Shown here in pieces: positions 7,632 to 47,517 of a stretch of 64,000 bases of DNA. This stretch comes from an uncultured Bacteroidales bacterium (GTDB taxonomy: Bacteria > Bacteroidota > Bacteroidia > Bacteroidales > FEN-979): positions 13,512 through 77,511 of the forward strand of contig CAIWMX010000011.1 in the NCBI GenBank assembly GCA_903913885.1, in the 5' to 3' direction. Under the pieces are notes generated by a model. That model saw only the letters and a program-made list of their open reading frames with translations. It had not been told where the DNA came from and made no database searches. Positions within the stretch are counted from its first letter, which is position 1. The number at the start of each line of letters is the position of its first letter. Both the position numbers and the translations under genes were made by a program.

Positions 7632-8978
7632 TCAGATCTCGTCGTTTTGTTTCAACCGGTACAGGGTCGACTTCCCGATGTCCAGCTTTTTAGCCACCAG
7701 GGCAACGTTATCCTGGTATTTATCGAGGTACGACCGGATGATCATCCGGTCATACTGGGCCAGGGTCATTTCGCCCGAGTTAAGAAAATCATTGGGTTGT
7801 GCTGTCTGGGAATAGATGATATCCTCAGTAAGCAGCACCTTGCCGTTCGACATAACCACGGCCAGGTCGATGATGGCTTTAAGTTCCCTGATATTGCCGG
7901 GATAGGAGTAACGGAGCAGTTTTTCACTTGCTTCGCTGGAAAAGCTGACAAGCGGCATTTTATTCTCCTTGCAGAACATTTCGGCAAAGTGTTTTGCCAG
8001 GATCATGATATCATTGTTCCTTTCACGAAGCGGGGGAAGGTGAATGGGAAGGCCCAGGAGGCGAAAATAGAGATCCTGCCTGAAGTTGCCGAGCGCCACT
8101 TCCTCCTTCAGATCACGGTGCGTGGCAACAATGAGCCTCAGGTCGAGGGGAATGGTCTCCTTTCCCCCGATCCTCACCAGTTCCCTTTCCTGGATCACAC
8201 GCAACAGTTTGGCCTGCAGCGCAATATCCATATCGCCGATTTCATCAAGAAACAGGGTTCCCTCGCTGGCGACTTCAAACCGGCCAATTTTCCTCGTGTC
8301 AGCGCCGGTAAACGCACCTTTTTCATACCCGAACAACTCGCTTTCGAGCAACTCTTTCGGGATAGCCGACATATTTACAGCCACAAAAGGTTTCTTGCGC
8401 CGGGGTGAATTATAGTGGATCGCCTTCGCCACCATCTCCTTGCCGGTACCTGTTGCCCCGGTTATTGAAACATTGATGTTGGTCTTGCTGGCCCGTTCAA
8501 TCAGGGCATAGATGGTCTTGATCGCCTGGCTGTTGCCGATGATGGCCTTTTCGAAGTCATATTTCCTGCCCACCTCTTCCTGCAGTTGCTCAACCTGGCT
8601 TTTCAGCACCTGGTTTTCGCGTATGCGCAGGATCACATTCCACAAACGGGATCTCGAATCCTGTTCCTTTACGATATAATCATTTGCACCGTCTTTCAGC
8701 AAATCAAGGGCCGTTGAAATATCCTTCTGGCCGGAAACGATGATCACCTTCGTGTCGGGACTCGTTTGCCGTATCTTTTTAAGAATCACAGCGCCGTTTA
8801 TATCCGGCAGATCATAATCAAGGGTGACCAGGTCGGGCTTTTTATGCAGTTCGCCCATAAATTCCTTCCCGGTCAAAAAAAGCTTGATGTCATAGTCAGG
8901 GTTCGACGAGAGGTATTGCTTCAGATATTGTCCATAAAATCTGTCATCCTCTACAATGAAAATTGAAAAACTACTCAT
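7632..8978 (-). CDS. sigma54-dependent response regulator (REC + AAA+ + Fis-type HTH; NtrC family)
   Basis: 448 aa. REC domain (DDxxF..LDYDLPDING), Walker A GATGTGKE, the GAFTGA loop (EKGAFTGA), and a C-terminal HTH (KSTLYRLKQ). Confidence 0.92.
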   Translation of the reverse strand: MSSFSIFIVEDDRFYGQYLKQYLSSNPDYDIKLFLTGKEFMGELHKKPDLVTLDYDLPDINGAVILKKIRQTSPDTKVIIVSGQKDISTALDLLKDGANDYIVKEQDSRSRLWNVILRIRENQVLKSQVEQLQEEVGRKYDFEKAIIGNSQAIKTIYALIERASKTNINVSITGATGTGKEMVAKAIHYNSPRRKKPFVAVNMSAIPKELLESELFGYEKGAFTGADTRKIGRFEVASEGTLFLDEIGDMDIALQAKLLRVIQERELVRIGGKETIPLDLRLIVATHRDLKEEVALGNFRQDLYFRLLGLPIHLPPLRERNNDIMILAKHFAEMFCKENKMPLVSFSSEASEKLLRYSYPGNIRELKAIIDLAVVMSNGKVLLTEDIIYSQTAQPNDFLNSGEMTLAQYDRMIIRSYLDKYQDNVALVAKKLDIGKSTLYRLKQNDEI

Positions 8979-9193
8979 AGTTTCCGGTTTTGGGATTTGA
9001 TGGTCAATATGACAACTTTTCCCAGGATGACAAAGATATAAAAAGGTTTAATATCATGCTGATGATCTGCTTTATTTAAATAAATAAACCTGGCAACTCC
9101 CTGTTTTTATCTTTTTAATTCCCGGATTTTCATCCGGGGAAACGCACAGAAGGCCGGGAAGGCAGCAGCCACAAGAGGATGGTTTGTAAGGCT

Positions 9194-10207
9194 TTACTTT
9201 ATCGAATGGAAGATTTCATGAAGCTCGCCAAGCTTTTTGGTGATGGTTTTATCGTCGGCTTTCTTAATAACCAGTTGATTTAAAACTCCTGCCTCTTTGA
9301 CCAGGCTGGCGATCGAATTTTTTATTTCAGCCGTATTGAATGAGGCCGGGATCTTTCCGCTTTGCAGATCTTTAGCCCTGGCCAACAACTCGCCCGACCG
9401 TTCGCGGATGGGATTCAGGTCGCCATCCTGCGAGGGATGGAAGGTCTGCGACATCACTTCGTGAAATTCATTCAGCCCCGTCCACGTATCCTTTTCAATA
9501 TCTTTCAGCAGGGGGTTTGCGAGGGCATCGGTGTAGTTCTTATTTACCGCGGCCCAGTTGATCGTGTTGACAATGGCCGAAAGGTAATCTCCCCGTTTGT
9601 TCTGATACTTCAGGTAATAGGCATGTTCCCAAACATCGATGGCCAGGATTGGAATCCCGCGTTCGGGAGAGACATCCATGATAGGATTGTCCTGGTTGGG
9701 AGAGGAACACACGGCAAGTTTCTTATCCGTGGTGACATAAAGCCAGGCCCAACCTGAACCAAAACGGGTGGCGCCTGCTTTGGTCAGCAGCTTCTTTAGA
9801 CTGTCGGCCGAGCCGAATGTGGCAATAACCGCTTTCCCCACGTCGCTCAGGGCATCAAACGGGTTGTTTAACGAAAGGGTATTCCAGTAGAGCGAATGGT
9901 TGTAATGCCCTCCGGCGCTGTTGCGCACGGCATCGCCGGTTTCACCGGCGTAAAGCAGGAGTTCTTCCAGCGTGTATTTCTCATATTCGGTTCCTTTCAC
10001 CGCGAGGTTGAGGTTTTTTACATACGTGGCATGGTGCTTCGAATAATGGATCTCCATGGTCTGTGCATCGATGACAGGCTCAAGGGCAGTGTACGCGTAA
10101 GGCAGCCTGGACAGTTCAAAAGGATAGTTTTGCGCCGGCAGGAGTGTGGAAAACCCCGTAAGGAGTAAGGTTATGGTAAAAAGGGCGATATACCTGAGAT
10201 TTTTCAT
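9194..10207 (-). CDS. Fe/Mn superoxide dismutase, exported, with an extra C-terminal helical domain of about 110 aa
   Basis: 337 aa. Signal peptide, then LPYAYxALEPxID..HxxKHHxxYV and DVWEHAYYLKYQNxR, followed by about 110 further residues not found in ordinary SODs of about 200 aa. Confidence 0.9.
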   Translation of the reverse strand: MKNLRYIALFTITLLLTGFSTLLPAQNYPFELSRLPYAYTALEPVIDAQTMEIHYSKHHATYVKNLNLAVKGTEYEKYTLEELLLYAGETGDAVRNSAGGHYNHSLYWNTLSLNNPFDALSDVGKAVIATFGSADSLKKLLTKAGATRFGSGWAWLYVTTDKKLAVCSSPNQDNPIMDVSPERGIPILAIDVWEHAYYLKYQNKRGDYLSAIVNTINWAAVNKNYTDALANPLLKDIEKDTWTGLNEFHEVMSQTFHPSQDGDLNPIRERSGELLARAKDLQSGKIPASFNTAEIKNSIASLVKEAGVLNQLVIKKADDKTITKKLGELHEIFHSIK

Positions 10208-32661: not shown

Positions 32662-34641
32662 ATGAAACTCCCGCGACAAACCCTCCCTGCCATCGCCCTC
32701 ATCTCGCTGATACTGGCTTTCACGAAATCCTCACCGGCCCAGGAAAAGATGGTCTTCGGTAAAATCGAGCCCGGCGACCTTACATTAACCCATTGCCCGT
32801 CGGATACTTCGGCCGGGGCGATGGTGCTGGGCGACATCGGCTCCACCTGGTTCGATTACGACCCGATTGGCGGTTTTGTCATGATGTATGAACGGCTGCT
32901 CAGGATCAAAATATTCAGGAAGAGCGGGTATGATTATGCCAGCCAGGTGATCGCTCTCTTTCACGAGGATAATCTGAAGGAGGATATGATGATCTTCAAG
33001 GCCCGGACATACAACATGGAAGGCGGGCAGATGGTGGAAACAAAGTTGAAGGATGAGTCCGTTTTCAGGGAGTCGGAGGACATCTACCGTGACAATCTGC
33101 GGTTTACCTTCCCGGCGGTGAAGGAGGGCTCCATCATCGAGATGAAGTACACCATCCGCTCCCCCTTCTTCGGGTATTTTCGCGACTGGACATTCCAGTA
33201 TTCCATCCCGGTGCGCTGGAGCGAATACGAAACCAATATCCCCGAATTTTATCATTATACGCATCAAACCTTCGGTTATGTGCCGTTTTTCATCAACAAG
33301 GAATCATCCGCCCCGAATTCAAACACGACGATAAGCTTCACCGACAACATCCTTCGCCTTGCCGTGAAAGATGTGCCGGCCATCAGGGAAGAACCTTTTA
33401 CCAATTCCATCAGCAATTATACCTGCCGGGTTGAGTATGTGCTTCATTCATACCAGTTTCCCGGCCAGTTGTACCATGCCATCAATACCAACTGGGCGAA
33501 TGTGGCCTCGAAGCTGATGAAAGACGAAGACTTCGGCCTGCAACTGAAAAAAAGAGGGGTGGTCAAAGAGTTTGCCGCGGCCATCAGCGCGGAGGCCAAA
33601 ACGCCGGAGGAAAAGATGCTTCTGGCGTTCGACCGCATCAGGAACCGGATGAAATGGAATGAACATTACTCAAAATACACCTCGAAGAAACTGGCTAAAT
33701 CCTTCGACGAAAAAACCGGCAACTCGGCCGATATCAACATGCTGCTGATCGTGTTGATGCGTGAACTCGGGTTAACAGCCGACCCGGTGCTGCTCAGCAC
33801 CCGCACGCACGGGCTGGTGATGGATTACACGGTTTCCCTTTCGCGCATGAACCACGTAATCTGCCTGGTAACCCTCGGCGAAAAGAGTTACCTGCTCGAC
33901 GCAACGCAACGCGTACTTCCCTACAACATGCTCCCGTTCCAGTGCCTCAACGGCCAGGGGCTGGTCGTGCTGCCTGAAAAAGCGCGCTGGATCGACCTGC
34001 TGACCAGCGAAAAGAAAAACAAACTCGTGTGTCCGAAATTTAAGATATCCCCTGCCGGCGAAATCGAGGGTACCATGCAGGTGACCACCACCGGGTATAA
34101 TGCCAGGGATATCCGCAACGCATGTGCGCTCACCGGGAAGGAGGAGTATGTCAGAACTCTGAAAACCGGCCTGAAAAGCTGGGAAGTGACGGATGTCGCG
34201 TTTGAAAACCTCGACAAACTAACTGAACCGCTCATCACCGGTTACACCCTGAAAAATCCGGATGTCGCGCAGGTGAGCGGGAATATGATCTACCTGAACG
34301 TATTGGCGAATCTGGGCCAGACCACCAATGACTTTGTTCAGGAGAAGCGGTATTCGCCCGTCGATTTTGGTTGCCCGGCAAAGGAATCGTATGTGTTCAC
34401 CTACGAAATTCCGGCCGGGTATGCCGTGGAATCGCTCCCCGAGAATGTCCGCCTGTTGCTGCCCGACCAAGCCGGTTCCTATAAGTTCATGATCACGGCA
34501 GAGGGTGGCAGGATCACCGTCAACACACAACTGAACATCAACAAAACCCTGTTCCTCCCTGCCGATTACGATACCCTGCGGAATTTCTTCACCCAGGTCA
34601 TCGCCAAACAGTCGCAGCAAATCGTCCTTAAAAAAGCCTGA
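32662..34641 (+). CDS. DUF3857 + transglutaminase-like (Cys replaced by Ser) + DUF3858-type protein
   Basis: 659 aa with a signal peptide. The TGase-core-like block TGNSADINMLLIVLMRELGLTADPVLL has Ser where the paralog downstream has the catalytic Cys. Confidence 0.68.
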   Translation: MKLPRQTLPAIALISLILAFTKSSPAQEKMVFGKIEPGDLTLTHCPSDTSAGAMVLGDIGSTWFDYDPIGGFVMMYERLLRIKIFRKSGYDYASQVIALFHEDNLKEDMMIFKARTYNMEGGQMVETKLKDESVFRESEDIYRDNLRFTFPAVKEGSIIEMKYTIRSPFFGYFRDWTFQYSIPVRWSEYETNIPEFYHYTHQTFGYVPFFINKESSAPNSNTTISFTDNILRLAVKDVPAIREEPFTNSISNYTCRVEYVLHSYQFPGQLYHAINTNWANVASKLMKDEDFGLQLKKRGVVKEFAAAISAEAKTPEEKMLLAFDRIRNRMKWNEHYSKYTSKKLAKSFDEKTGNSADINMLLIVLMRELGLTADPVLLSTRTHGLVMDYTVSLSRMNHVICLVTLGEKSYLLDATQRVLPYNMLPFQCLNGQGLVVLPEKARWIDLLTSEKKNKLVCPKFKISPAGEIEGTMQVTTTGYNARDIRNACALTGKEEYVRTLKTGLKSWEVTDVAFENLDKLTEPLITGYTLKNPDVAQVSGNMIYLNVLANLGQTTNDFVQEKRYSPVDFGCPAKESYVFTYEIPAGYAVESLPENVRLLLPDQAGSYKFMITAEGGRITVNTQLNINKTLFLPADYDTLRNFFTQVIAKQSQQIVLKKA

Positions 34642-34645
34642 CCGG

Positions 34646-36547
34646 ATGCGAAATCTCCTCTTATTTATCCTGTTTCCCTGCCTGTTGCTGAACCAGCATG
34701 CCGCAGGGCAGGCGGCCCGTTACCCGGTATCGGCCATCGACACGGCATTGCTGAAAAACGCCTCGGTGGTGGTACGCTGCAGCGATATGAACATTCATGT
34801 CTCGTCGCTGAATTCAGAATATCTCACCCATCACCTAGTGTTTACGATTCTGAAAGGAAGCGCTGCCGATGAAGCGATCCTGTCGGTCGCATACAACAAC
34901 TGGTCCGACATCGACCGGTTCGAAGGGGTCATGTATGATGCCAGGGGTGTGGTGATAAAAAAACTGGGAAAGAAGGATATCTTCGACCAGAGCGCCATCA
35001 GCGACGGCATGCTTTACTCCGACGAACGGATGAAGACCATCAGGCCGGTCATCGGCGGATATCCGGTTACCATTGAGTATTTCGTGAAGCAATCGTTCCG
35101 CCGCATGCTGGCCTATCCCACGTGGAAGCCGCAGTACTCCTTCAACATGGCGGTGGAATCAGCGAAGCTGACCCTGGAGGCCGACGGAGATCTCATGCCC
35201 CGGTTCAAAGCCCTCCGTATCCCTGAAAATGCGGTTGTTTCCGGCGACGGAACAAAAACGAAGACCTGGGAGATCGCCGGCCTTGCCGCTGTTACCGACG
35301 AACCGTTCAGCCCCCCGCTCACCGAACTGGCACCCGTCATCTATATTGAACCAAACACTTACTCGGTAAAGGGATATACCGGGGATTTCAGTTCGTGGAA
35401 ATCGTTTGGCGGGTGGATCGCCACCCTTCAGGAATCGCGCGACAGCCTCAGCGCCACTGTGCATGCCAGGATGAACGAACTGGTGAGCGGAACGGATAAC
35501 CTCACCGAGAAGGTAAAACGCGTTTACCGGTACATGCAGTCTACGTGCAGGTATGTCAGCGTGGATGTGGGCATTGGCGGGATCCAGTCGGAGATGGCCG
35601 ACAAGGTTGCCCGGCTTGGGTATGGCGATTGCAAAGGCCTGGTAAACTACACCGGTGCCCTGCTGAAGGCGGCCGGCATTCCTTCCTACTACACGCTCGT
35701 AAGGTCGGGTGACAACGCCGAAGCCATCCAGCGCGACTTCCCCGGGAACCAGTTCGACCACGTCATTCTCTTTGTTCCCACTGCGAAAGACTCCATCTGG
35801 CTCGAATGCACCGGGATGAAAATGCCGTTTGGGTACCTCGGCAATTTCACCGACGACCGCGATGTGCTGGCCATGACGCCGCAGGGCGGCCTGCTGCTCC
35901 ACACGCCCGTTTATCCAAAAGAGCAAAATACCAGTTCCAGGATCACGCGGATGACCGTCGATTCAACGGGCGAGGCTACGGTTCAGATGAAGAGCATTTA
36001 CCGGGGGCTGCAGTTCGACCCGGTGATGGAGCAACCATACAGGTCGGCCGACGAGCAGAAGGAAGCCCTGCGAAAGCACTTTCGGGTTCCCGGTGTGCTG
36101 TTCAGTTCCGTGTCTTATAAAGCTTACGGCGACCGGCTCCCGGTGATGGAGGAACAGGCAAAGGCTGTGGTTCCGAAGTTTTCATCGGTCAGTGGCAACC
36201 GCATGTTCATTTTCCTGAACCGGTTCCTCGACAACCCCGGTACCTTTGCCCGCGACAACCAGCGCAAATACGATGTGGTGGTGAACGATCCCTATATCGA
36301 TTACGACACCGTGGTGGTGGAGATACCCCGCGGGTGCAGGATCGAGACCTCCCCCGCCCCTGCCGAACTTAAAACCCGTTTCGGGATGCTGAATTCGGAA
36401 GTTAAAACCGACGGGAAAACCGTCACGATGTACCGCCGCTTTGAACTTGAAAAAGGGCGCTACCCGGCCGGTCAGTACAATGCATTCGTCGATTTCCTGC
36501 GGCAGGTTGCCAGGCAGGATAACAGCGGGGTGGTGGTGATCAGATGA
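34646..36547 (+). CDS. DUF3857 + transglutaminase-like cysteine-protease-fold protein
   Basis: 633 aa with a signal peptide. The TGase core GYGDCKGLVNYTGALLKAAGIPSYY has the Cys present. Starts 4 bp after the paralog upstream. Confidence 0.75.
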   Translation: MRNLLLFILFPCLLLNQHAAGQAARYPVSAIDTALLKNASVVVRCSDMNIHVSSLNSEYLTHHLVFTILKGSAADEAILSVAYNNWSDIDRFEGVMYDARGVVIKKLGKKDIFDQSAISDGMLYSDERMKTIRPVIGGYPVTIEYFVKQSFRRMLAYPTWKPQYSFNMAVESAKLTLEADGDLMPRFKALRIPENAVVSGDGTKTKTWEIAGLAAVTDEPFSPPLTELAPVIYIEPNTYSVKGYTGDFSSWKSFGGWIATLQESRDSLSATVHARMNELVSGTDNLTEKVKRVYRYMQSTCRYVSVDVGIGGIQSEMADKVARLGYGDCKGLVNYTGALLKAAGIPSYYTLVRSGDNAEAIQRDFPGNQFDHVILFVPTAKDSIWLECTGMKMPFGYLGNFTDDRDVLAMTPQGGLLLHTPVYPKEQNTSSRITRMTVDSTGEATVQMKSIYRGLQFDPVMEQPYRSADEQKEALRKHFRVPGVLFSSVSYKAYGDRLPVMEEQAKAVVPKFSSVSGNRMFIFLNRFLDNPGTFARDNQRKYDVVVNDPYIDYDTVVVEIPRGCRIETSPAPAELKTRFGMLNSEVKTDGKTVTMYRRFELEKGRYPAGQYNAFVDFLRQVARQDNSGVVVIR

Positions 36548-36768: not shown

Positions 36769-38613
36769 ATGAAAACACTATCCATTGCCGCCATTATCAT
36801 GATCATGGGTATCATGACCATGGGCCAAAGCAGAATAAGCACTGCTGTCGAATCGCGTGTAAGGCAAAATGCTCCGGCTGTCCCAGCCGATGACATGGTG
36901 CTGCCGCTTCGGGTCTCTTCCGGAGCCCCGCTTTCAAAACCGGCAATGGAAGTCCAGATCGGAGGTTCGCGTTACGATATGCAAACCAACCAGGCTATCT
37001 CGAACCGTATCTGCCTCTTTCCCGATGGCACACTCTCGGCCGTGTGGACCCAGGGATTTACCGATCCCTCTTTCCCCGACCGCGGAACAGGTTATAACTA
37101 TTTTAATGGTACAGCATGGCTGCCGGACCCGGCTTCCAGGATAGAGAATCTCCGGACCGGCTGGCCCTGCATCGCCCCGGTGAACGGGAACGGTGAGATT
37201 ATCATTTGTCACCGGTCCGGCACGGCTGAGATTGTGGTCGAGACCCGGCCCGTAAAGGGAACCGGTAACTGGACAACCAGTTCTATCCTGCCCCCGGCAG
37301 GCGCTTCCGGACTCGGCTGGCCACGGATGATCACATCCGGGCCGACCAACAGTTTTGTTCACATGATCCTGATCACCACCCCCACCGCCAGCGGCGGAAC
37401 GGCCTACCAGGGGCTCGATGCCGCGCTGCTTTACTACCGGTCGCCCGATGGCGGGGTTACCTGGAACAAGCAGGCCGTTTTGCTGCCCCAGCTTACTTCG
37501 GCCGACTATGACGGTTTCGCGGGCGATGTCTATGCATGGGGTACGCCACATGGCAACACCATCTATTTCGCCGCGGGCGCCCCCTATTCCGACACTTTTA
37601 TCATGAAATCCAATGATAATGGCAACACATGGACAAAGATCCCTGTGCTGAGCAATGCAAATAAAAAGATCGCTGCCGGAATAACTGACCTTCCCCCATG
37701 GAAGAGCGCCGACGGTTCTATGGCGGTTGAAATGGGCCACACGGGTATTATTCACCTGGCATTTGGCGTTGGCGGAGGGGTTGTTACCGGGGGCACAAAG
37801 TATATCACCGGCAACCTTAACGGCCTCGTTTACTGGAATACGACGATGCCCATGCTGAAAGACAGTCTCGATCTTGACACCCTGGATGCTCACGGGCAGT
37901 TGCTCGCATATGTGAGCAACGGGCCGAATCCGTGGGATACTCTCGTTGATGTTCCCTTCTACCGGGTTGCCATGACGAGTTTTCCCCAGATCACCATAGA
38001 TCAATTCAACGACATCTACTTTTTATGGTCGGGCGTAACCACGGAGAATCCCTCCCCGGAAAATTTCAACTACCGCCATCTGTTTGCCCGGCCGTGTTAT
38101 CACAACCACGCGACGATGTCGCCTCCTCTTGATCTGGAAGAAGATTTCATTCATGTTTTCCAGGAATTCGTCTATCCTGCCATGGCTAAAAAAACATGGC
38201 TTTACAATCTCCAGATCATTTACCAGTCCTCTTCCCAGCCCGGATCCAATATCGCCTCAACGTCGATCCCGGTCCATGATGTCACGATCGGGTTTCTGAC
38301 TGTGCCTGAATCCGTATTTTACCCGGTGGGCACCGGGCATCCGGCATTAACAGAGCCATTTACCGTGAGCCAGAGTTTTCCTAACCCCGCCAGGGAGTTT
38401 GCCGGTTTTGACGTAACAACCCAATCACCCTCCGGAATATCGGTGATTGTCTGCAACATGTTCGGGGAGAAGATAATGACCCTGGATAAGGGAATTCTTC
38501 CCGCCGGGAAAAATAAGATCACGCTGGATGTGAGCCGGCTGACTCCGGGCATCTATTTTTATACCGTAACGGTTGATGGTCATTCCGTCACGCATAAAAT
38601 GATCGCCGGTTAA
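36769..38613 (+). CDS. BNR/sialidase-like beta-propeller protein with a T9SS CTD
   Basis: 614 aa. Signal peptide, BNR motifs SPDGGVTW and SNDNGNTW, and a C-terminal T9SS sorting domain (..SVIVCNMFGEKIMTL..GIYFYTVTVDG..). Confidence 0.72.
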   Translation: MKTLSIAAIIMIMGIMTMGQSRISTAVESRVRQNAPAVPADDMVLPLRVSSGAPLSKPAMEVQIGGSRYDMQTNQAISNRICLFPDGTLSAVWTQGFTDPSFPDRGTGYNYFNGTAWLPDPASRIENLRTGWPCIAPVNGNGEIIICHRSGTAEIVVETRPVKGTGNWTTSSILPPAGASGLGWPRMITSGPTNSFVHMILITTPTASGGTAYQGLDAALLYYRSPDGGVTWNKQAVLLPQLTSADYDGFAGDVYAWGTPHGNTIYFAAGAPYSDTFIMKSNDNGNTWTKIPVLSNANKKIAAGITDLPPWKSADGSMAVEMGHTGIIHLAFGVGGGVVTGGTKYITGNLNGLVYWNTTMPMLKDSLDLDTLDAHGQLLAYVSNGPNPWDTLVDVPFYRVAMTSFPQITIDQFNDIYFLWSGVTTENPSPENFNYRHLFARPCYHNHATMSPPLDLEEDFIHVFQEFVYPAMAKKTWLYNLQIIYQSSSQPGSNIASTSIPVHDVTIGFLTVPESVFYPVGTGHPALTEPFTVSQSFPNPAREFAGFDVTTQSPSGISVIVCNMFGEKIMTLDKGILPAGKNKITLDVSRLTPGIYFYTVTVDGHSVTHKMIAG

Positions 38614-38653: not shown

Positions 38654-39088
38654 ATGAAACAGATCATCATTCTCCTGGTACTATTCCTCCCGGTATTTTC
38701 AGCGTGCAAAAAAAGCTTGCAGGACAAGCCGTCCCTGAATGTCGCCTCGGCCGACTGGTACACAACGACCACCAAATCAGCCGCGATTACATTCTGCGAT
38801 GTCCACCTGAAGGTAGCCGGGACAACGAATGCCGCGCTGCTTTCCATAGCCACTTACGGCGACGGGGTGAACGGTTGCACCGAACTCAAATGCGACACGG
38901 AACACCGGTTCAGCGCCGATGTGGTTATCTGTTTTTTCATGGTGAAGGATTCGGCACAGCGGAAATTCTCCACCGAACTTACTGCCTATTCCAGCAGGGT
39001 TAAACCCGCGGTCGTGCTTTGCAACGCGGTGGGTTCGGGAGAAACGATAAGTTATCCTGTGGAAAGCCAATTTCTGAAATGCTACTGA
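38654..39088 (+). CDS. hypothetical lipoprotein
   Basis: 144 aa. Lipobox LPVFSAC. No recognisable domain. Confidence 0.5.
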   Translation: MKQIIILLVLFLPVFSACKKSLQDKPSLNVASADWYTTTTKSAAITFCDVHLKVAGTTNAALLSIATYGDGVNGCTELKCDTEHRFSADVVICFFMVKDSAQRKFSTELTAYSSRVKPAVVLCNAVGSGETISYPVESQFLKCY

Positions 39089-39210
39089 GGCAGCGGCGGC
39101 CGCTCCTTGCCAATAAAATGGCTCACGGCGCTGCGTCCCTTGCACCGCCCGCACTTTTCTTTTCAACTCGCATTTGCTCAAAGGAACAGCCGGCTTAAGC
39201 TCCCACTGTA

Positions 39211-41379
39211 CTACGGGACGAAGAGGAGGCGGAAGCCAATATTGTAGTTGGAACGGGCAGGGTCGTAGTAGTCGCGGTAAGCCGACCGGCAGAAGCCAGC
39301 ATTGCCGATCCACGAGCCGCCGCGACTCACACGGCGCGTACCCGTTACAGGGCCGGCAGGATTTTCAACAACTCCCATTGATTTGCATTCTTCATAGTAT
39401 TTCTCACCATACCTGTCAATGCACCATTCCCACACATTGCCGTGCATATTATACAAACCCCATGGATTGGGTGCGAAACTACCGGCAGCGATCGTGTTTT
39501 TCCTGAAAATTCCCTTCTTGTTTTTCTTATACGGAAAATTTCCGTTATAATTTGCCTGATCGGTAGTCAGGTTGTCGCCGGTGCTGAATGGCGATGTCGT
39601 TCCTGCACGGCAGGCATATTCCCACTCTGCTTCCGTTGGCAAACGAAAGGTCTTGCCGGTTTTTGATGAAAGCCAGTTTGCAAAGGCAACCGCATCGTTC
39701 CAACTGACATGGATGACAGGATGATCCGATTCGCGTTCATCACGTTCTTTTCCCGAAACGCCGAAACGCCAGTTTATTCCTTCTCTATCCTTCCATTCCT
39801 TACCATCAAAAACCCTGCTGGTGCCTGATTTTTCGGCATCGGTAAGGTACCTTGATTCTTCATCAAATTTTTTAAAATCGGCAACCGTAACGGCGTACTT
39901 ACACATGTAAAAATCGGAAAGTCTCACGGGGTGTTGCATCTCATCATTATTCCGCCCGGTTTCATTCTCAAAACATCCCATTAAAAACTCTCCGCCTTTT
40001 ATCGCAACATAATTCGATGAGACCAAGGATGTTGCACCCATTATTTCTGAACAGAACTTTTTTGCCTGATCCATCCCTGCAAAATCCAGCATCATGGCAA
40101 AATCCAGGTTTTCGGCCGCCTCTTTTGCCAGGAAAAACTCCAGGATCGATTTATGGGCAAATTTCCAGTTGTTTTCGGCATCGCGGGTAAGGAGCGACTG
40201 GCCGGTCATCTGGTAATCCTTCAGTTCCACGTTCACATCGGTGGCATCGGCCTTGCTCAGCTGCAGGGAATGGGTCTCTTTTCGCTTTTCGTAAATTTTC
40301 ACGGCCACCAGTTGTGAATATTTATGGAGGTTCTGTTTTAGTTTTTCGCGATCTGTTTGTTTATGCTCACGCTTTTCGCCTTCGCGATCAATCCATTTGT
40401 TTACCAGGGTTTCATAGATCTGGTAGGTGTTGGTAAATGTTAGGTCGCCTCCAACCAGGTTGTCCACGTAACTGAGCAGCATGGGGCGGGCCATCAGGTT
40501 TGGCGACTCTTCGACAATTTGCCGGGCGATCCGTTTTTTCGGGTAGTTCCAGAACCTGAAGATGCCGTATTTTTTATTCAGGTATCGCCTGATTTCGTTG
40601 TCATCGAACGGGGAGAGGTAGAATTTCCCGAGGACATGAAACTTGTCATTGTTAAAATTGGGGATTTTCAGTTCGTAGGGCTGGCTTTCTTCCCCGGGGA
40701 AATACTGCGTGCGGCTGGTAATGACCACTTCGCGGAAATCCTGCACGGTTTCAATGACTTCATCCAGCACCTTGCGAAAACGCTCGTCATCGGTGAGCCC
40801 GTCGGGTTCGGCCGGGGGAAGGATTTTCGTGTATTCGTCGAATGCATCAAGCAGTAAAATGGTGTTTGGGATATCCTCCTTTTTTATCTCTTTGATTTTA
40901 TCAATGATATTGCCCTTGTATCCAAAAGGGATCAGCTTCATCTTATATTTGCGCCGGAAATTGAAAAAGGAGTTGTACCGCACGAACAAATTGATCATGA
41001 AGGTGGTTTTTCCCATGCCCGAATCAGCCAAAACGAGATAAAACTTATCGCTCACCTTTTTCCCGTTAAAGGCTGTATTGATAAAGTGCGGGATCAATTT
41101 TGATTTTGAAACGAACGGGTTTGAAAACCCCGGTTCCGCTTCCCTTGTCGGTGAATTATTCTGGTATTGGCTCTCAATAAACAAAGCGCGTTTTTCCTGA
41201 ATGTTTTTTTCGTTGAAATAGGGCGCCAGGTCTTTTGCCGCGTTCACGTTCTGGTAGCGTTTGTACAACGAGCTGGCCACGTATCCCAGCAAAGCGATCA
41301 ACACCCCTGAAAGCCCGGGAATGGTGATCCCCGAATGATCGACCACCGCCTTGATGATTGCTTCGAATACTTTTTCCAT
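39211..41379 (-). CDS. membrane-anchored NACHT (STAND) NTPase fused to a C-terminal FGE-sulfatase/SUMF1 domain
   Basis: 722 aa. One N-terminal TM (LSGVLIALLGYVASSLY). Walker A DSGMGKTT, Walker B ILLLDAFDE, ITSR, LSPF, ARPMLL and FAHKSILEFFLA, in NACHT order. The C-terminal approximately 270 aa carry FGE-sulfatase hallmarks (HPVxxVSWNDAxAFxxWLS, RLPTEAEWEYACRAG, NxWGLYNMHGNVWEWC, RGGSW, GFRL). Confidence 0.8.
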   Translation of the reverse strand: MEKVFEAIIKAVVDHSGITIPGLSGVLIALLGYVASSLYKRYQNVNAAKDLAPYFNEKNIQEKRALFIESQYQNNSPTREAEPGFSNPFVSKSKLIPHFINTAFNGKKVSDKFYLVLADSGMGKTTFMINLFVRYNSFFNFRRKYKMKLIPFGYKGNIIDKIKEIKKEDIPNTILLLDAFDEYTKILPPAEPDGLTDDERFRKVLDEVIETVQDFREVVITSRTQYFPGEESQPYELKIPNFNNDKFHVLGKFYLSPFDDNEIRRYLNKKYGIFRFWNYPKKRIARQIVEESPNLMARPMLLSYVDNLVGGDLTFTNTYQIYETLVNKWIDREGEKREHKQTDREKLKQNLHKYSQLVAVKIYEKRKETHSLQLSKADATDVNVELKDYQMTGQSLLTRDAENNWKFAHKSILEFFLAKEAAENLDFAMMLDFAGMDQAKKFCSEIMGATSLVSSNYVAIKGGEFLMGCFENETGRNNDEMQHPVRLSDFYMCKYAVTVADFKKFDEESRYLTDAEKSGTSRVFDGKEWKDREGINWRFGVSGKERDERESDHPVIHVSWNDAVAFANWLSSKTGKTFRLPTEAEWEYACRAGTTSPFSTGDNLTTDQANYNGNFPYKKNKKGIFRKNTIAAGSFAPNPWGLYNMHGNVWEWCIDRYGEKYYEECKSMGVVENPAGPVTGTRRVSRGGSWIGNAGFCRSAYRDYYDPARSNYNIGFRLLFVP

Positions 41380-41440: not shown

Positions 41441-41448
41441 CAAATATA
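41441..41448 (-). promoter_or_regulatory. possible -7 box (TATATTTG) for the NACHT-FGE gene
   Basis: The minus strand reads TATATTTG 62 nt upstream of the ATG at 41379, downstream of the TonB terminator. No convincing -33 TTG is present. Confidence 0.3.
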
Positions 41449-41461
41449 AACATCTTCCCAT

Positions 41462-41495
41462 AAAAACGAAAACACCCCGGAAACCTTCCAGGGTG
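41462..41495 (-). terminator. rho-independent terminator after the TonB-family gene
   Basis: The minus strand reads CACCCTGG-AAGGTTT-CCGGGGTG (8-bp stem with one G-U pair) followed by TTTTCGTTTTT. Confidence 0.55.
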
Positions 41496-41540
41496 CATTC
41501 AAAAAAAATCATATTGCAACAACGTCCCTCGTCCCACGTA

Positions 41541-42626: not shown

Positions 42627-43790
42627 TTGAATACACTGAAAGAAATAGCAGCCCTGTGTGAAGACCTGGCCTTCGACCTCTCCTTTGCACGGGCCAGGGA
42701 GTGGAAATCGCAGGAGGCCGGCCGTGTCGTGGTGGGGCACATGCCCATCTATTTCCCGCGGGAGATCATCCATGCAGCCAACGGACTGGCGGTGGGGATC
42801 CTGGGGGGAGGAGATAAAAAGCTCATCATCAAGGGCGACGCCTATTACCAGTCATATATCTGCCACATGCCCAGGAGCATCGTCGAACTCGTGCTGGACA
42901 AGCATTTTGAAGGGTTCGACGGCTTCATCTTTCCTTCCATCTGCGACGTGATCCGCAACCTTTCAGGTATGTTCCAGCTGATGGGTGAAGGCAAATTCGT
43001 CAAGTATCTCGACCTGCCTCAGAATTTCAAGGCGCACATCGGTGGCACTTTTTACCGACACGAACTTCAAACGGTGATGGATGAAGTGTTCAAACTGAAC
43101 GGGGTGGTGATCACGGCCGAACGGCTCAACCATTCCATCGGACTGTTTAACCTGAACCGCCGGCTGATCTGCCAGTTGTATGATATCCGCCAGGATTTTC
43201 CGTGGCGGATGACGGCGGCCGACCTTTACCACATCGTGCGCGCGGGCTATGTCATTCCCGTGGAAGAACACAACGGAATCCTGGAACAGGCAGTCCGGCT
43301 GATCCAGCAGGAGACCGGCGACCCCATGGACAAGATCCGTGTGCTGGTGATGGGCGCTTTCTGCGAGCAGCCCCCCGCAGGACTGATCCGCACCATCGAA
43401 CTGGCAGGCTGTTATATCGTCGAAGACGATTTCCTGTTAGGCGCCCGGTGGATCCAGGGTGATATCGGCACCGGCAGCGCCGACCCGCTGGAGGCCATAA
43501 CCAGCGCCTACCTTGAAAAGAGCACCTTCTCCTCTTCGGTGTATGATGTGGGCAATCCCAAAGAGGCGCGCCTGCTCGACCTTATCCGGAAACGGAAGAT
43601 CGACGGGGTGATTTTTGCGGCACCCAGTTTCTGCGACCCGGCACTGCTCGACCACCCAATACTGCAGAAGGAGTGCAACGACAAAAATATCAGGTTTATC
43701 AGTTTTCTCTACAGCGAGAATACCGGTCAGTTCAAGGTGATCAAAGAGCAGGTGGGAACGTTCTCGGATTCTATCAAGTTGTGGGATTAA
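42627..43790 (+). CDS. bcrC: benzoyl-CoA reductase (class I, ATP-dependent) subunit C-like
   Basis: 387 aa and a member of the 2-hydroxyacyl-CoA dehydratase/BcrBC superfamily (..FPREIIHAANGLAVGILGG..YYQSYICHMPRS..IFPSICDVIRNL). First of a C-B-A-D-ordered four-gene set. The annotated start is TTG and its exact position is uncertain. Confidence 0.75.
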   Translation: MNTLKEIAALCEDLAFDLSFARAREWKSQEAGRVVVGHMPIYFPREIIHAANGLAVGILGGGDKKLIIKGDAYYQSYICHMPRSIVELVLDKHFEGFDGFIFPSICDVIRNLSGMFQLMGEGKFVKYLDLPQNFKAHIGGTFYRHELQTVMDEVFKLNGVVITAERLNHSIGLFNLNRRLICQLYDIRQDFPWRMTAADLYHIVRAGYVIPVEEHNGILEQAVRLIQQETGDPMDKIRVLVMGAFCEQPPAGLIRTIELAGCYIVEDDFLLGARWIQGDIGTGSADPLEAITSAYLEKSTFSSSVYDVGNPKEARLLDLIRKRKIDGVIFAAPSFCDPALLDHPILQKECNDKNIRFISFLYSENTGQFKVIKEQVGTFSDSIKLWD

Positions 43791-43875
43791 CCTTTTAACG
43801 TTTTACCAGGATATGAAAAATAAAACCATAAACGCATAAACAGAACATTCCTAACCCCTGATTAAACCCAGTCTT

Positions 43876-45156
43876 ATGTCGAAGGAGGTAGCAAAAGAAC
43901 GCAGCATGATCATCCAGAAAGAGATGATGACCCGGCTTTTCAGGGACCTTGGCAACGCCCGGGAGACCGGTAAAAAGGTGGTCTATACTTTCGTTCCCGG
44001 CAACATCTCCGAGCTGATCCTCTCCTTCGACATGCTCCCGGTCTACCCCGAGATCAACGCCCTGCAGTCGGGCATGCGCAAGAAGTCGGGCGGCTACATC
44101 CGCGACGCCGAACAGCATGGCCATTCAGAAGATGTTTGCACCTATGTGAAGTGCGACGTAGGCATGATGCTAAACGGGAACATCGGCCCTACCGGCGAGA
44201 AGATTCCCAGTCCCGACCTGCTGCTGCTGAGCTATACCGGCTGTTTCACCTTCCTGAAATGGTTCGAGACCCTCGAGCGCCTCTATCCCGGCGTGCCGGT
44301 GGCCCTGCTGCACACGCCCTACCAGGAAGCCCACAAGATCACCCCCGAAATGACTGCCTACATGGTCAAGCAGTTGAAGGAGGAGGTGATTCCGAAAATG
44401 GAGAAGGTGTCTGGCAACAAATACGATGAAGAGAAACTGAAAGCCATCCTGCGCAACTCCTCGCAGGTGGAGGATTACATCGTGAAGATCTTCGATACCA
44501 CCAAGCACCGCCCCTCGCCCATCGACGCCTATTTCGCGGGGGTATACTACATCGGCCCCATCAACAGCGGGTTCAGGGGCACACCCGAAGCGGTGGATTA
44601 CTATGCTGAACTCTATAAGGAAATTCTTACGCGTATCGACAAAAAACTTGGCCCCATCACCCCCGAAGGCGAGATGGAAGAGGAGCGGTTCCGCCTCGTG
44701 GTCGAAGGCCCCCCCAACTGGACCCATTTCCGTGAATTCTGGAAATTATTTTATGACATGGGCGCCGTGATCGTTGCCTCCTCCTACACCAAAGTGGGTG
44801 GGGTATACGATATGGGTTTCCGCGTCAACCCCGATAAACCCCTTGAAAGCCTGGCAGAATACTGCATGAATTGCTACACCAACCTCAACCTGGAACAGCG
44901 GGTTGAGTTGTTGTCGAAATGCATTACCGACTACCATGCCGACGGGTTCCTTGTTAATTCAATCAAGAGTTGTAACTCATTCTCTGCCGGGCAATTGATG
45001 ATCATGCAGCAACTGGAGCGCAAACTGGAGATCCCGGTCGGGTTCATTGAATCCGACCTGGTGGATCCCCGGTATTTCTCGTACTCGAATATCAAAAACC
45101 GTCTTGAATCATTCTTCCAGATGCTGGAGCAACGGAAGATGATCGTGACACGCTAG
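43876..45156 (+). CDS. bcrB: benzoyl-CoA reductase subunit B-like
   Basis: 426 aa, same superfamily (..VCTYVKCDVG..LLSYTGCFTFLKW..). Size and position fit the beta subunit. Confidence 0.75.
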   Translation: MSKEVAKERSMIIQKEMMTRLFRDLGNARETGKKVVYTFVPGNISELILSFDMLPVYPEINALQSGMRKKSGGYIRDAEQHGHSEDVCTYVKCDVGMMLNGNIGPTGEKIPSPDLLLLSYTGCFTFLKWFETLERLYPGVPVALLHTPYQEAHKITPEMTAYMVKQLKEEVIPKMEKVSGNKYDEEKLKAILRNSSQVEDYIVKIFDTTKHRPSPIDAYFAGVYYIGPINSGFRGTPEAVDYYAELYKEILTRIDKKLGPITPEGEMEEERFRLVVEGPPNWTHFREFWKLFYDMGAVIVASSYTKVGGVYDMGFRVNPDKPLESLAEYCMNCYTNLNLEQRVELLSKCITDYHADGFLVNSIKSCNSFSAGQLMIMQQLERKLEIPVGFIESDLVDPRYFSYSNIKNRLESFFQMLEQRKMIVTR

Positions 45157-45227
45157 GGAAACTGCTGATGAGCTATTGTCCTCCCCTGTAAACGGGGCAG
45201 GAATGGTATAATTTAACGGATACGTAA

Positions 45228-46604
45228 ATGAAGAAATATTTCCTGGGAATCGATCTTGGATCCACTACCTCCAAAGCCATTATTATTGATGACAACGACC
45301 GGATTATCGGACGCGGGATCACCAATACGCGGGCGAATTATACCGTTGCCACCGAGATCGCGCGGCTCGAAGCCATTTACAATGCGCGATTTTCCCTGCT
45401 GAAGATGAAGCTGGAAGATGAGATCGAACGAAGGCCCGAATACAAAAGATACATCAGGGATATCGAATCGGTTTTCAGGTACATCCAGTTCAAGCGCAGG
45501 CTCGACCGGCTGAACATCCAGTTCCGCGACACGATCGACGGGACTTTCGGCGGGGAGATGAAGGAGAATATAACCCAATATGTTGCCCGGATCGTGAAGG
45601 AGATCGGCCCTGCCATCCTCGATGAATACCTCAACGGCAACCTGGGCCAGAAAAACCAGTTCTTCCGCGACATCGTGAGCGAAAAATACAACCATGAGGT
45701 GAACGGACTGGCGAAAGCCTACTTTGAACCCATGATGCTGGTGTACGACAAAAGCATATCCCACGTGGAGAATGAACTCACCGAATATGATTTCGGGGAG
45801 CTGATTTACCAGTCGATGGAGTTGCTGAACGATAAATATTCGGGGATGGCGGATGTGGCTGAAGAGGAAGCCGGGATCGGGTTCGACACTGAGCTCAACC
45901 TGCTGAAAGGCAACTACAAGCAGATTTATGATTCGCTGAAGGGGCACATCAGTTTCATCGCCAACCTCGACATCCACATCACCAACATGGTGGGCACGGG
46001 TTACGGGCGGGCGTTGCTGCCTTTCCCCGAAAAATCGATCCGGTCGGAGATCCTCTGCCACGCGTTCGGCGCCCATGCCGTGTTCCCTGGAACGCGCACC
46101 GTGCTCGACATCGGCGGACAGGATACGAAGGCCATCCAGGTCGACAGCCACGGGCTGGTGACCAGTTTCTACATGAACGACCGTTGCGCCGCGGGTTGCG
46201 GGCGTTACCTCGGCTATATCGCCGACGAGTTCAACATCTCCCTCAACGAGCTTGGCCCGCTGGCCATTGAAGCCACCAGCGAGGTGAACATCTGTTCCAC
46301 CTGCACCGTTTTTGCCGCGGCCGAGATCAGGGAACTACTCAATGTTGGCCAAAAACGTTCCGACATCCTGGCCGGTCTTCACCGTGCCATCGTGATGCGG
46401 GCCATGTCGCTGCTGGCGCGTTCGGGCGGTGTGCGCAACGAATTCACCTTCACCGGCGGGGTTGCCCGCAACCAGGCCGTGCTGAAGTATGTTTCCGACC
46501 TGGTCCTAAAAAATTACGGCAGCGAAATCAAAATCAACGTCCATACCGATTCGATCTTCATGGGCGCCCTTGGCGGTGCCATGTTCGCCCGAAGAACCAA
46601 CTAA
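45228..46604 (+). CDS. bcrA: benzoyl-CoA reductase subunit A-like (long ATPase subunit)
   Basis: 458 aa. BadF/BadG/BcrA/BcrD-type ATPase (GIDLGSTTSKAIIID ... DIGGQDTKAI ... NDRCAAGCGRYL ... FTGGVARN) with an insertion of about 190 aa after the first phosphate loop, as in the BcrA/BadF long subunits. Confidence 0.78.
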   Translation: MKKYFLGIDLGSTTSKAIIIDDNDRIIGRGITNTRANYTVATEIARLEAIYNARFSLLKMKLEDEIERRPEYKRYIRDIESVFRYIQFKRRLDRLNIQFRDTIDGTFGGEMKENITQYVARIVKEIGPAILDEYLNGNLGQKNQFFRDIVSEKYNHEVNGLAKAYFEPMMLVYDKSISHVENELTEYDFGELIYQSMELLNDKYSGMADVAEEEAGIGFDTELNLLKGNYKQIYDSLKGHISFIANLDIHITNMVGTGYGRALLPFPEKSIRSEILCHAFGAHAVFPGTRTVLDIGGQDTKAIQVDSHGLVTSFYMNDRCAAGCGRYLGYIADEFNISLNELGPLAIEATSEVNICSTCTVFAAAEIRELLNVGQKRSDILAGLHRAIVMRAMSLLARSGGVRNEFTFTGGVARNQAVLKYVSDLVLKNYGSEIKINVHTDSIFMGALGGAMFARRTN

Positions 46605-46616
46605 TATGAAAAAAAT

Positions 46617-46668
46617 CACCCTGTCACCTTGTTACCTTGTTACCTTGTCACCTTGTCACCTTGTCACC
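46617..46668. repeat. 8-nt tandem repeat YACCTTGT, about 6 copies, in the bcrA-bcrD spacer
   Basis: caccctgt caccttgt taccttgt taccttgt caccttgt caccttgt cacc. It ends 16 nt before the bcrD ATG. Confidence 0.92.
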
Positions 46669-46683
46669 ATTTAATAAACCATC

Positions 46684-47517
46684 ATGACAGCTAAACCAAC
46701 CTTCACCCTCGGCGTCGACGTAGGAAGCAGCATCATCAAGGCGGTGCTGATGTCCTATTCGGACACCCCGGTCATCCTTGATAAGGAGTCGGAAAAGATC
46801 CGGAAAAGGAACCCCGAGATGGTCGCCGACCAGCTGATCGATCACCTGCTTGAGAAAAACAACCTCACTTACCAGGATATCACCTACCTGGCATCGACCG
46901 GCGAAGGAGAGATGCTTCAGCGCAAGCGCGGCCACTTCTACAGCATGACCACCCACGCCCGGGGCGGCGTATTCCTGAACCCCGGCGCCCTCACCGTGGT
47001 CGACATGGGCGCCCTGTATGTAAGAGCCATCAGGATCAATGAAGAAGGCAGGGTGCTCGATTACAAAATGACGGGACAGTGCGCTTCCGGGTCGGGCCAG
47101 TTTATCGAGAACATTTCGCGTTACCTGGGACTTTCAATCGAAGATGTCGGGGAGACCTCCCTGAAATCGTTCACCCCGGAAACCCCGTCGGGCATCTGTT
47201 CCGTACTCGCAGAAACCGATGTGATCAACATGGTTTCACGTGGAATTTCCACCCCGGATATCATCAAGGGGATCCACCTCTCGATCGCCAATAAGATCGT
47301 GAAACTGCTCTCCTCGCTCAAGGCGACTTCGCCGGTTGCCCTCACGGGAGGGATGGCCATGAACATCGGGATGATCCAGGCGGTGGAGGAGTTGGTGGCC
47401 GAGAGCAAGCTCAACCTGGAGATCAGGGCCAACGGCGATTCGATCTATGCCGGGGCCATCGGGGCGGCGATATGGGGAGGATTCAGGGATGTAAAACTTT
47501 CAACCGTAAAAAATTAA
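46684..47517 (+). CDS. bcrD: benzoyl-CoA reductase subunit D-like (short ATPase subunit)
   Basis: 277 aa, same ATPase family (GVDVGSSIIKAVLM ... DMGALYVRAI ... TGQCASGSGQF ... LTGGMAMN). Together with the preceding gene it gives the heterodimeric ATPase module typical of class I BCR. Confidence 0.78.
   Translation: MTAKPTFTLGVDVGSSIIKAVLMSYSDTPVILDKESEKIRKRNPEMVADQLIDHLLEKNNLTYQDITYLASTGEGEMLQRKRGHFYSMTTHARGGVFLNPGALTVVDMGALYVRAIRINEEGRVLDYKMTGQCASGSGQFIENISRYLGLSIEDVGETSLKSFTPETPSGICSVLAETDVINMVSRGISTPDIIKGIHLSIANKIVKLLSSLKATSPVALTGGMAMNIGMIQAVEELVAESKLNLEIRANGDSIYAGAIGAAIWGGFRDVKLSTVKN

Follow-up and report, generated by a model that had tools for sequence, protein, structure and literature searches.

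The uncultured Bacteroidales bacterium studied here (GTDB lineage FEN-979; GenBank assembly GCA_903913885.1) carries a gene whose product combines a single transmembrane (TM) helix, a NACHT-like STAND NTPase and a C-terminal domain of the FGE-sulfatase/C-type-lectin fold (FGS; FGE, formylglycine-generating enzyme). This gene, referred to as the NACHT-FGS gene, is located on the reverse strand of a 64,000-nucleotide stretch of contig CAIWMX010000011.1 (positions 13,512 to 77,511), and the whole stretch is called the window below. Judging from sequence comparisons, the gene ends in a variable repeat (VR) and appears to be the second, remote target of a diversity-generating retroelement (DGR) on contig C125, by which it would be served in trans. 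We consider it rather probable that the protein is a membrane-anchored STAND ATPase resembling the nucleotide-binding leucine-rich repeat receptors (NLRs), and that it senses non-self molecules through a lectin tip rewritten in trans by this DGR. The immune function of the gene is inferred by analogy. A sequence-only reading of the window had proposed an NLR-like sensor with the order TM helix, NACHT-like NTPase and FGE/C-type lectin (CLec) domain; this architecture is confirmed by our analysis, and the same reading has been put forward elsewhere (PMC8195603; PMC10907252; Kibby et al. 2022 preprint).

A remote target of the resident retroelement

When the genome was searched with the protein, contig C125 was recovered, on which an FGE-only gene and a reverse transcriptase (RT) gene are found together with a short stretch that shares 64% identity with residues 678-722. 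The region (G000 contig C125:109500-115500, locus L017) is a complete HRDC-type DGR, composed of a 298-aa FGE target with its own variable repeat (VR1), an HRDC protein (1.3e-17), a 331-aa RT (RVT_1, 1.7e-13) and a template repeat (TR) rich in Asn codons. Over the last 125 nucleotides, aligned without gaps, the VR of the NACHT-FGS gene is mismatched to the TR at 19 of 34 adenines, versus four of 91 non-adenine sites (P = 7e-10, Fisher's exact test). The adjacent VR1 shows 16/34 and 1/91 mismatches, respectively, an almost identical, comparable adenine-specific pattern. Eighteen codons in residues ~681-713, which would form the binding surface of the lectin-fold domain, are variable via TR adenines, corresponding to ~10^18 theoretical variants. 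The 5.16-Mb genome contains exactly three copies of the 27-nt block that closes the VR and resembles an initiation of mutagenic homing (IMH) sequence, and no copy of its reversed control.

A further element after the stop codon is complementary to the sequence following the TR (post-VR element, Table 1). Its single mismatch would form a G.U pair, its score was reached by none of 2000 shuffles, and it is unique in the window. The corresponding element after VR1 is shorter, complementary at 12 of 12 nucleotides, and has the same +34 end as that of the remote gene. In the Chlorobiaceae systems in which the DGR adjoins its target in cis, CTCAAAAGCAAAGTCGGA is paired with TCCGGCTTTGCTTTTGAG at +17..+34; across DGR lineages the two sequences, post-VR and post-TR, thus co-vary. 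The NTPase is 75-78% identical to Chlorobiaceae proteins, though the post-VR element does not match the DGRs of these relatives: it fits the resident DGR (score 14) rather than those of Chlorobiaceae (score 6), which suggests that the coupling to the resident DGR has been maintained. From these comparisons we infer that the post-VR element acts in target recognition. A stable post-VR hairpin, following the Bordetella phage paradigm, was also considered and was rejected, the minimum free energy being weak for the NACHT-FGS gene (-2.8 kcal/mol) and the structure not conserved.

DGR targeting had entered the sequence-only reading as general background only. The gene itself is now found to be a DGR target, in trans, which strengthens its interpretation as a variable ligand sensor. 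Two observations are added on the sequences around the remote and the adjacent target. A second conserved motif, CAAGGGACGCAGCGCCG, is common to the remote target and cis-targeted Chlorobiaceae homologs (Table 1), and its candidate roles are DGR recognition, a terminator or an RNA element. On C125, a gene for an LRR-Roc-COR (ROCO) GTPase is located downstream of the DGR on the same strand, and a gene for an ICMT/PEMT-family membrane methyltransferase also flanks it. The C125 DGR thus serves two putative sensor contexts, a small lectin protein beside the ROCO gene and the remote NACHT protein.

The C-terminal lectin-fold domain

The FGE-sulfatase signature that the sequence-only reading had recognized at the C terminus is matched by Pfam (Table 1), and similarity to FGE is strong in both sequence (1e-37) and fold (Foldseek, 1e-21). 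The two Cu-binding catalytic cysteines were examined in a HMMER alignment to human and bacterial FGEs. The equivalent of human Cys341 is kept (Cys697), and the position of human Cys336 is occupied by glycine (Gly692). Among 121 relatives, the Cys341 column is cysteine in 99, versus S, N, G, D, Y, F and others in the Cys336 column. Since one of the two catalytic cysteines is missing and its column is variable in the family, the protein is not a formylglycine-generating enzyme, and a catalytic reading was rejected. The family profile matches TvpA (2y3c), the DGR variable protein of Treponema denticola, at 5.5e-38. The FGS domain is predicted from these alignments to be a non-catalytic, ligand-binding sensor. 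In the databases, hundreds of homologs go by the name "SUMF1/EgtB/PvdO family nonheme iron enzyme", or else [quoted passage not shown]. For this clade such enzyme names are very likely wrong, and the NTPase goes unrecognized under them.

A divergent NACHT-like NTPase

The ordered motifs listed in the sequence-only reading (GMGKTT, LLLDAFDE, TSR, SPF, PMLL and HKSILEFF) are all present, and their conservation was judged on alignments of 36 and 42 relatives. Walker A fits the consensus GxxxxGK[ST] and Walker B the consensus hhhhD[GAS]hDE, and their residues G121, M122, G123, K124, D178, A179, D181 and E182 are invariant. Invariance, complete or nearly so, was also observed for TSR (T221, S222, R223), for SPF at residues 256-258, for R298, P299, M300 and L302 of RPMLL (298-302), and for F407, H409, S411 and E414 of FAHKSILEF (407-414). 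The TSR sensor-1, the RPMLL of the helical domain and the F-H-S-E of the winged helix are known as NACHT signature motifs (Koonin and Aravind 2000; Leipe 2004).

Profile searches were less decisive. The protein scores below the gathering thresholds of both Pfam NACHT (PF05729; 13.1 bits vs. 26.7) and nSTAND3 (PF20720; 15.9 bits vs. 27.2), and sequence and profile searches of the PDB with the NTPase returned nothing useful. At E<=0.01, nSTAND3 is matched by 31 of the 36 relatives and NACHT by 14; the distant relative L088 passes the NACHT threshold (27.1 bits), and L087, L088 and L092 pass that of nSTAND3. The nSTAND3 call is not specific, because this model finds matches in all 14 control genomes. 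Given the subthreshold Pfam scores, the NACHT assignment rests on the motifs and on fold search. FGE matches dominate a Foldseek search with the full-length model, and residues 40-455 were instead folded alone (AlphaFold2, AF2, 42-sequence alignment), giving a model with a mean predicted local distance difference test score (pLDDT) of 87.3 and a predicted template modelling score (pTM) of 0.87. Ranks 1-26 in the PDB are then all NACHT NLRs, namely NLRP3 (best, 6.8e-9), NOD2, NLRC4/NAIP, NLRP9, NLRP7 and NLRP2, over ~425 aligned columns. CED-4 first appears at rank 27, and SAMD9 and ORC/RFC are likewise placed behind the NLRs. Together, motifs and modelled fold support the view that the NTPase is a divergent NACHT-like STAND module. 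No paralogs of the NTPase were found elsewhere in the genome by protein search.

N-terminal segment and predicted topology

The one N-terminal TM helix of the sequence-only reading is recovered as the sole hydrophobic segment: no second one was found in a Kyte-Doolittle scan of the 722 residues, and a helix (residues 20-51) covers the TM region in the AF2 model. It is preceded by a short, conserved amphipathic helix (residues 1-13). Upstream of the ATG, the open reading frame (ORF) gains just 11 codons (733 aa in total), thus no N-terminal domain is hidden there. In 90 of 121 relatives a hydrophobic segment (>=1.6) is found at the TM position, although its sequence is not conserved. The flanking charges, net -1 on the N side and net +2 on the C side, predict an N-out/C-in topology, in which the NTPase and lectin-fold domains would face the cytoplasm.

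A very strongly conserved loop, QNxSPTxEEEP (residues 68-90; window ~41110-41178, minus strand), connects the TM helix to the P-loop domain, with Q73, P77, E80 and E82 invariant. Residues 74-89 are modelled at pLDDT <50 in the full-length model. It may be a motif for regulation or interaction that is peculiar to the NACHT-FGS clade.

Distribution and genomic context of the family

A search with residues 1-450 yields more than 939 proteins, most of which carry an FGE-sulfatase domain, and 229 relatives are found in species-representative genomes of Chlorobiaceae, many Bacteroidota, Calditrichia, Spirochaetales, Opitutales, Gemmatimonadota and Anaerolineales. Family identity across phyla is 55-71%, which indicates horizontal transfer. 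None of the 24 other species of the genus has the gene, and among the 16 other families of the order it occurs in one (57% identity), so that the term "orphan" in the sequence-only reading was apt. Its low GC content, its absence from congeners and its 55-78% identity to proteins of Chlorobiaceae, Calditrichia, Spirochaetales and others together mark the gene as horizontally acquired and accessory. Matches in viral contigs and plasmids are few and distant (two in IMG/VR, one in PLSDB), and this near-absence suggests that the family is not mobile-element cargo.

A cassette of HRDC and RT genes homologous to that of C125 adjoins the gene in 15 of 79 homolog loci, and at least nine other genomes, some from other phyla, contain homologs with the same cassette in cis. 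Cis TR/VR pairs are entirely free of non-adenine mismatches at loci L019, L023, L027, L030 and L046, and almost free of them at L044, L057, L067 and L071. Beyond HRDC, RT and extra FGE targets, no conserved neighbor of the homologs was found. Among 137 neighboring ORFs, FGE (11), radical SAM (7), NACHT (3), nSTAND1 (2), TIR (2) and PDC-S01/S02 (2) were counted, the rest being ordinary.

In distant members, the TM-NTPase chassis is combined with Lcl_C/DUF1566, Fib_succ_major or leucine-rich repeat (LRR) C-termini instead of FGE. Such an exchange of C-termini is the sensor swapping typical of NLR-like receptors. Two homolog loci deserve mention in their own right. A Calditrichia metagenome-assembled genome (MAG; JANQQU010000055.1, L060:2587-13045) carries a tandem array of four FGE/NTPase-family ORFs, which are 841, 711, 987 and 703 aa long. 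The TM-NTPase chassis is present in at least two of them, and the array resembles NLR clusters. In a Chlorobiaceae MAG (CAIPMW010000038.1, L064:6621-10498), the NTPase match ends at residue 402 and resumes ~1.7 kb further on; this gene was probably split by an insertion element, a 481-aa ORF (7835-9280) being located in between.

Proposed mechanism and alternative explanations

By analogy with Avs, bNACHT and NLR proteins, the diversified lectin tip would bind a non-self molecule, probably phage-derived, in the cytoplasm, and ligand binding would lift autoinhibition and allow NTP-dependent oligomerization. Oligomerization would in turn cluster the N-terminal TM helices, and the clustered helices might perturb the membrane, as in abortive infection, or signal at the membrane. 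The last step is the weakest: for want of any other effector or conserved partner, the TM helix is taken as the effector, which makes its role purely conjectural. A narrower version of this mechanism is possible, if doubtful. In it, the protein would be a compact, DGR-programmable NLR with the TM helix as its sole effector, and a DGR lacking the accessory protein Avd and using HRDC would find its remote target by pairing of the post-TR RNA with the 17-nt element at +18..+34.

Several observations weigh against a non-self sensor kept variable by the resident DGR, in addition to the conjectural effector step. No recognized effector domain is found at the N-terminus, and a few relatives are without the TM segment. 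A scan of the protein with PADLOC-DB v2, which includes models of the Avs and bNACHT types, returned no families at E<=1. The sequence-only reading had asked whether homologs sit in defense islands, and the answer is mixed: homolog neighborhoods are heterogeneous, consisting mostly of ordinary genes with scattered STAND and TIR genes, and the neighbors in the window (TonB, type IX secretion system (T9SS) cargo and acyl-CoA dehydratase-type genes) form no defense island. The NACHT-FGS gene was found in none of the RNA runs searched for transcription. STAND-linked CLec/FGS proteins are described as experimentally uncharacterized (PMC10907252). Finally, the VR of the window is matched exactly by contigs of eight lake and freshwater metagenomes (2016-2020), and it carries four non-adenine differences from the TR.

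These last two points bear on the question of whether the VR is still being rewritten. The data on diversification are assembled contigs, which cannot show minority variants. The 90%-identity cluster comprises two lineages, with one VR version within each. The sister lineage (L018) shares the synteny of the window (TonB, the gene, a 144-aa ORF and T9SS). Outside the VR its DNA shows 94% identity, and 39 of the last 140 nucleotides of its gene differ, 25 of them at TR-adenine sites. The VR thus differs far more than the 6% found elsewhere, largely at TR-adenine sites, and must have been rewritten since a recent split. The identical VRs and the four non-adenine differences, in turn, suggest that retrohoming to the remote site is rare, or may have ceased. 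Ongoing low-level diversification may be compatible with the contig data, since contigs hide rare variants. Some contigs from low-coverage samples break inside the VR, which may reflect the shared repeat or hidden variants.

The NACHT-FGS gene could accordingly be a past DGR target, possibly acquired with a Chlorobiaceae-like cis cassette, that is now a STAND sensor of fixed specificity. Such an outcome is unlikely, though by no means negligible. It would account for the persistence of one VR in the contigs of the eight metagenomes and within each lineage, for the four non-adenine mismatches to the TR as opposed to one for VR1, and for the lack of an RT adjoining the gene. It does not sit well with the 27-nt 3' block, still perfectly identical to the TR, or with a post-VR element complementary at 16/17 sites to the resident DGR, a better match than that of VR1's own element (12/12 over a shorter stretch), and unmatched to the Chlorobiaceae DGRs. 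It is also at odds with a VR that was rewritten after two lineages, now just 6% apart, had split, and minority variants would be invisible in contigs.

A second alternative accepts the membrane-anchored STAND switch and assigns it a non-immune role, the lectin domain recognizing ligands from self, kin or the environment, for instance in cell-cell recognition or to tune regulation. The TonB, T9SS cargo and metabolic neighbors, rather than defense genes, would be in keeping with such a role, as would the zero PADLOC matches and the lack of a death-type effector domain; cyanobacterial DGR targets have been proposed to tune regulatory pathways (PMC7517822). Nevertheless, the protein has no DNA-binding or enzymatic output domain for signaling. 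A patchy distribution driven by horizontal transfer, sensor swapping and paralog arrays, such as the four genes in tandem at L060, are typical of conflict genes, and the recurrent neighbors, if any, are other FGE, STAND or TIR genes. We regard a non-immune sensor as distinctly unlikely.

Extracytoplasmic display, with the N-terminal helix as a signal anchor and the lectin domain outside, serving like TvpA and other surface DGR targets as a diversifiable adhesin or receptor, is very improbable. Many characterized DGR variable proteins are surface-exposed and a hydrophobic N-terminal helix is present, but the positive-inside rule places the C-terminus in the cytoplasm, the intact P-loop NTPase with its invariant Walker motifs needs cytoplasmic NTP, and no signal-peptidase or lipobox motif is found. 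Hardly credible at all is a genuine formylglycine-generating enzyme for sulfatase maturation fused to a regulatory ATPase: despite the strong similarity to FGE and the source annotations of homologs, a catalytic cysteine is replaced by glycine in a hypervariable column, the former active-site region is the DGR-mutagenized VR, no sulfatase genes adjoin, and LRR or Lcl_C replaces the domain in other clade members. The non-self sensor with a DGR-rewritten lectin tip is the reading that we prefer.

Gene features and the surrounding window

The features of the NACHT-FGS gene are compiled in Table 1. The GC content of the gene is 47.3% (46.3% excluding the VR), compared with a window mean of 52.9% +/- 2.4%, and only 1.6% of equal-sized windows have GC this low. 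The TonB gene (57.8%) and the gene with a T9SS C-terminal domain (53.9%) on its two sides are higher, as the sequence-only reading had noticed. The same reading had credited the gene with its own -7 box and an upstream terminator. Both were located, the box 62 nt upstream of the ATG and the terminator-like hairpin between the TonB and NACHT-FGS genes.

Table 1. Features of the NACHT-FGS gene and its flanks (positions in the 64,000-nt window)
Feature	Position	Strand	Description and basis
Whole gene	39211..41379	-	722 aa: TM helix + NACHT-like STAND NTPase + FGE/CLec (FGS) domain; ORF list
Single TM helix	41263..41328	-	Residues 18-39; hydrophobic segment at 17-39, Kyte-Doolittle 1.83 over 19 aa
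NACHT-like STAND NTPase	40015..41097	-	Residues ~95-455 (nucleotide-binding, helical and winged-helix parts); motifs, AF2, Foldseek
Walker A	41002-41019	-	DSGMGKTT, residues 119-126
Walker B	40834-40857	-	LLLDAFDE, residues 175-182
FGE-sulfatase/C-type-lectin-fold (FGS) domain	39226..40011	-	Pfam FGE-sulfatase E=2e-60, residues 457-718
DGR variable repeat (VR)	39211..39342	-	Last 132 nt of gene; residues ~681-722
27-nt block at VR 3' end, IMH-like	39211..39237	-	Identical in TR, VR1 and NACHT-FGS gene
Post-VR element, +18..+34 after stop	39177..39193	-	16/17 complementary to first 17 nt after TR
Second conserved motif CAAGGGACGCAGCGCCG	39126..39142	-	~70 nt after stop; also after VRs of L046, L038, L026 and L035, variant in L019
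-7 promoter box TATATTTG, Bacteroidota-type	41441..41448	-	Direct sequence reading
Intrinsic-terminator-like hairpin	41472..41496	-	11-bp stem + T-run; terminator scan and sequence; ends upstream TonB gene

Three further observations were made in the window. Convergent with the NACHT-FGS gene is a 144-aa ORF (38654-39088, plus strand) bearing a lipoprotein-type signal (…LPVFSAC). It matches no Pfam family; it is conserved in L018, and no copy was found beside other family members. Two tandem proteins with DUF3857, transglutaminase-core and DUF3858 domains, followed by a protein with a T9SS C-terminal sorting domain, form a block (32662-36547 and 36769-38613, plus strand) that is syntenic in L018. 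On the other side (42627-47517, plus strand), two HGD-D subunits, related to 2-hydroxyacyl-CoA dehydratase and benzoyl-CoA reductase, are encoded together with two BcrAD/BadFG ATPase activators, a cluster that points to an anaerobic lifestyle.

Comparison with known systems

STAND NTPase-FGS proteins linked to DGRs, including a DGR "elsewhere in the genome", have been catalogued computationally, and hypermutable invader sensing was proposed as their role (Kaur, Iyer, Burroughs, and Aravind 2021 eLife, PMC8195603). Like the NACHT-FGS protein, these systems have a central STAND NTPase (NACHT, MNS or nSTAND) followed by a C-terminal FGS/FGE lectin fold. They usually carry N-terminal effector-associated domains (EADs) or enzymatic effectors (TIR, caspase, trypsin), whereas only a short helix and one TM segment are found here; their accessory protein is the four-helical Avd rather than HRDC; and they are enriched in multicellular cyanobacteria, in contrast to a family spread across Bacteroidota, Chlorobiaceae, Calditrichia and others.

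In Thiohalocapsa PB-PSB1, the targets of DGR 3 and DGR 6 combine DGR-diversified CLec domains with NACHT or nSTAND1 NTPases, some with a predicted TM segment, and were interpreted as antigen sensors (Doré et al. 2024 PNAS, PMC10907252). Those targets are DGR-adjacent, occur as duplicated pairs and have peptidase or EAD partners, whereas the NACHT-FGS gene is single, is targeted in trans and has no conserved partner. The TvpA DGR of Treponema denticola is an HRDC-containing "Architecture C" system with multiple remote targets (Wu et al. 2018, PMC5758913). It resembles the C125 system in its HRDC accessory gene, in its FGE/CLec-type variable protein and in its remote targets. However, targets of the TvpA type lack an NTPase and are lipoproteins or surface proteins, whereas the NACHT-FGS protein is a STAND ATPase predicted to face the cytoplasm.

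A survey of bNACHT proteins lists FGS C-termini of the "antigen receptor-type", with NACHT+FGS in its Table S1 (Kibby et al. 2022 preprint 10.1101/2022.07.19.500537; Cell 2023). The NACHT motif set and fold are shared with the NACHT-FGS protein, which differs in scoring below the Pfam NACHT threshold. [quoted passage not shown] FGE-sulfatase-like sensors and TM modules have also been reported among defense-associated STAND clades (preprint 10.64898/2026.01.04.697583). The tripartite effector-NTPase-sensor logic is that of Avs proteins, although no PADLOC Avs model matches and characterized Avs sensors are TPR-like and germline-fixed, not DGR-diversified. Against this background, the sequence-only reading overstated how unusual the architecture is, because earlier work had tabulated NACHT+FGS and had described STAND-FGS proteins whose DGR lies at another site of the genome (PMC8195603). 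The present case departs from these precedents in its effector-less N-terminus with a single TM helix, in being served in trans by an HRDC DGR that lacks Avd, in its addressing element, which co-varies, and in the breadth of the clade outside multicellular bacteria.

Significance

DGR-diversified STAND/NLR-like receptors are the closest proposed bacterial counterpart to anticipatory antigen receptors. The NACHT-FGS gene provides a tractable example, as a single 2.2-kb gene with no accessory effector and a separate, well-defined retroelement. The alleles of the window and of L018 constitute a natural pair that differs almost only in the VR, and the post-VR element offers a prediction of how the DGR finds this remote gene. 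If the addressing rule is true, any gene could become a DGR target. If ligand-triggered, Walker-A-dependent activity or DGR retargeting via the post-VR element were demonstrated, a long-standing hypothesis would become testable. Should the compact, DGR-programmable mechanism prove true, the gene and the C125 cassette would together amount to a minimal immune system of an anticipatory ("adaptive-like") kind, and this in a unicellular, Bacteroidota-like bacterium of freshwater.

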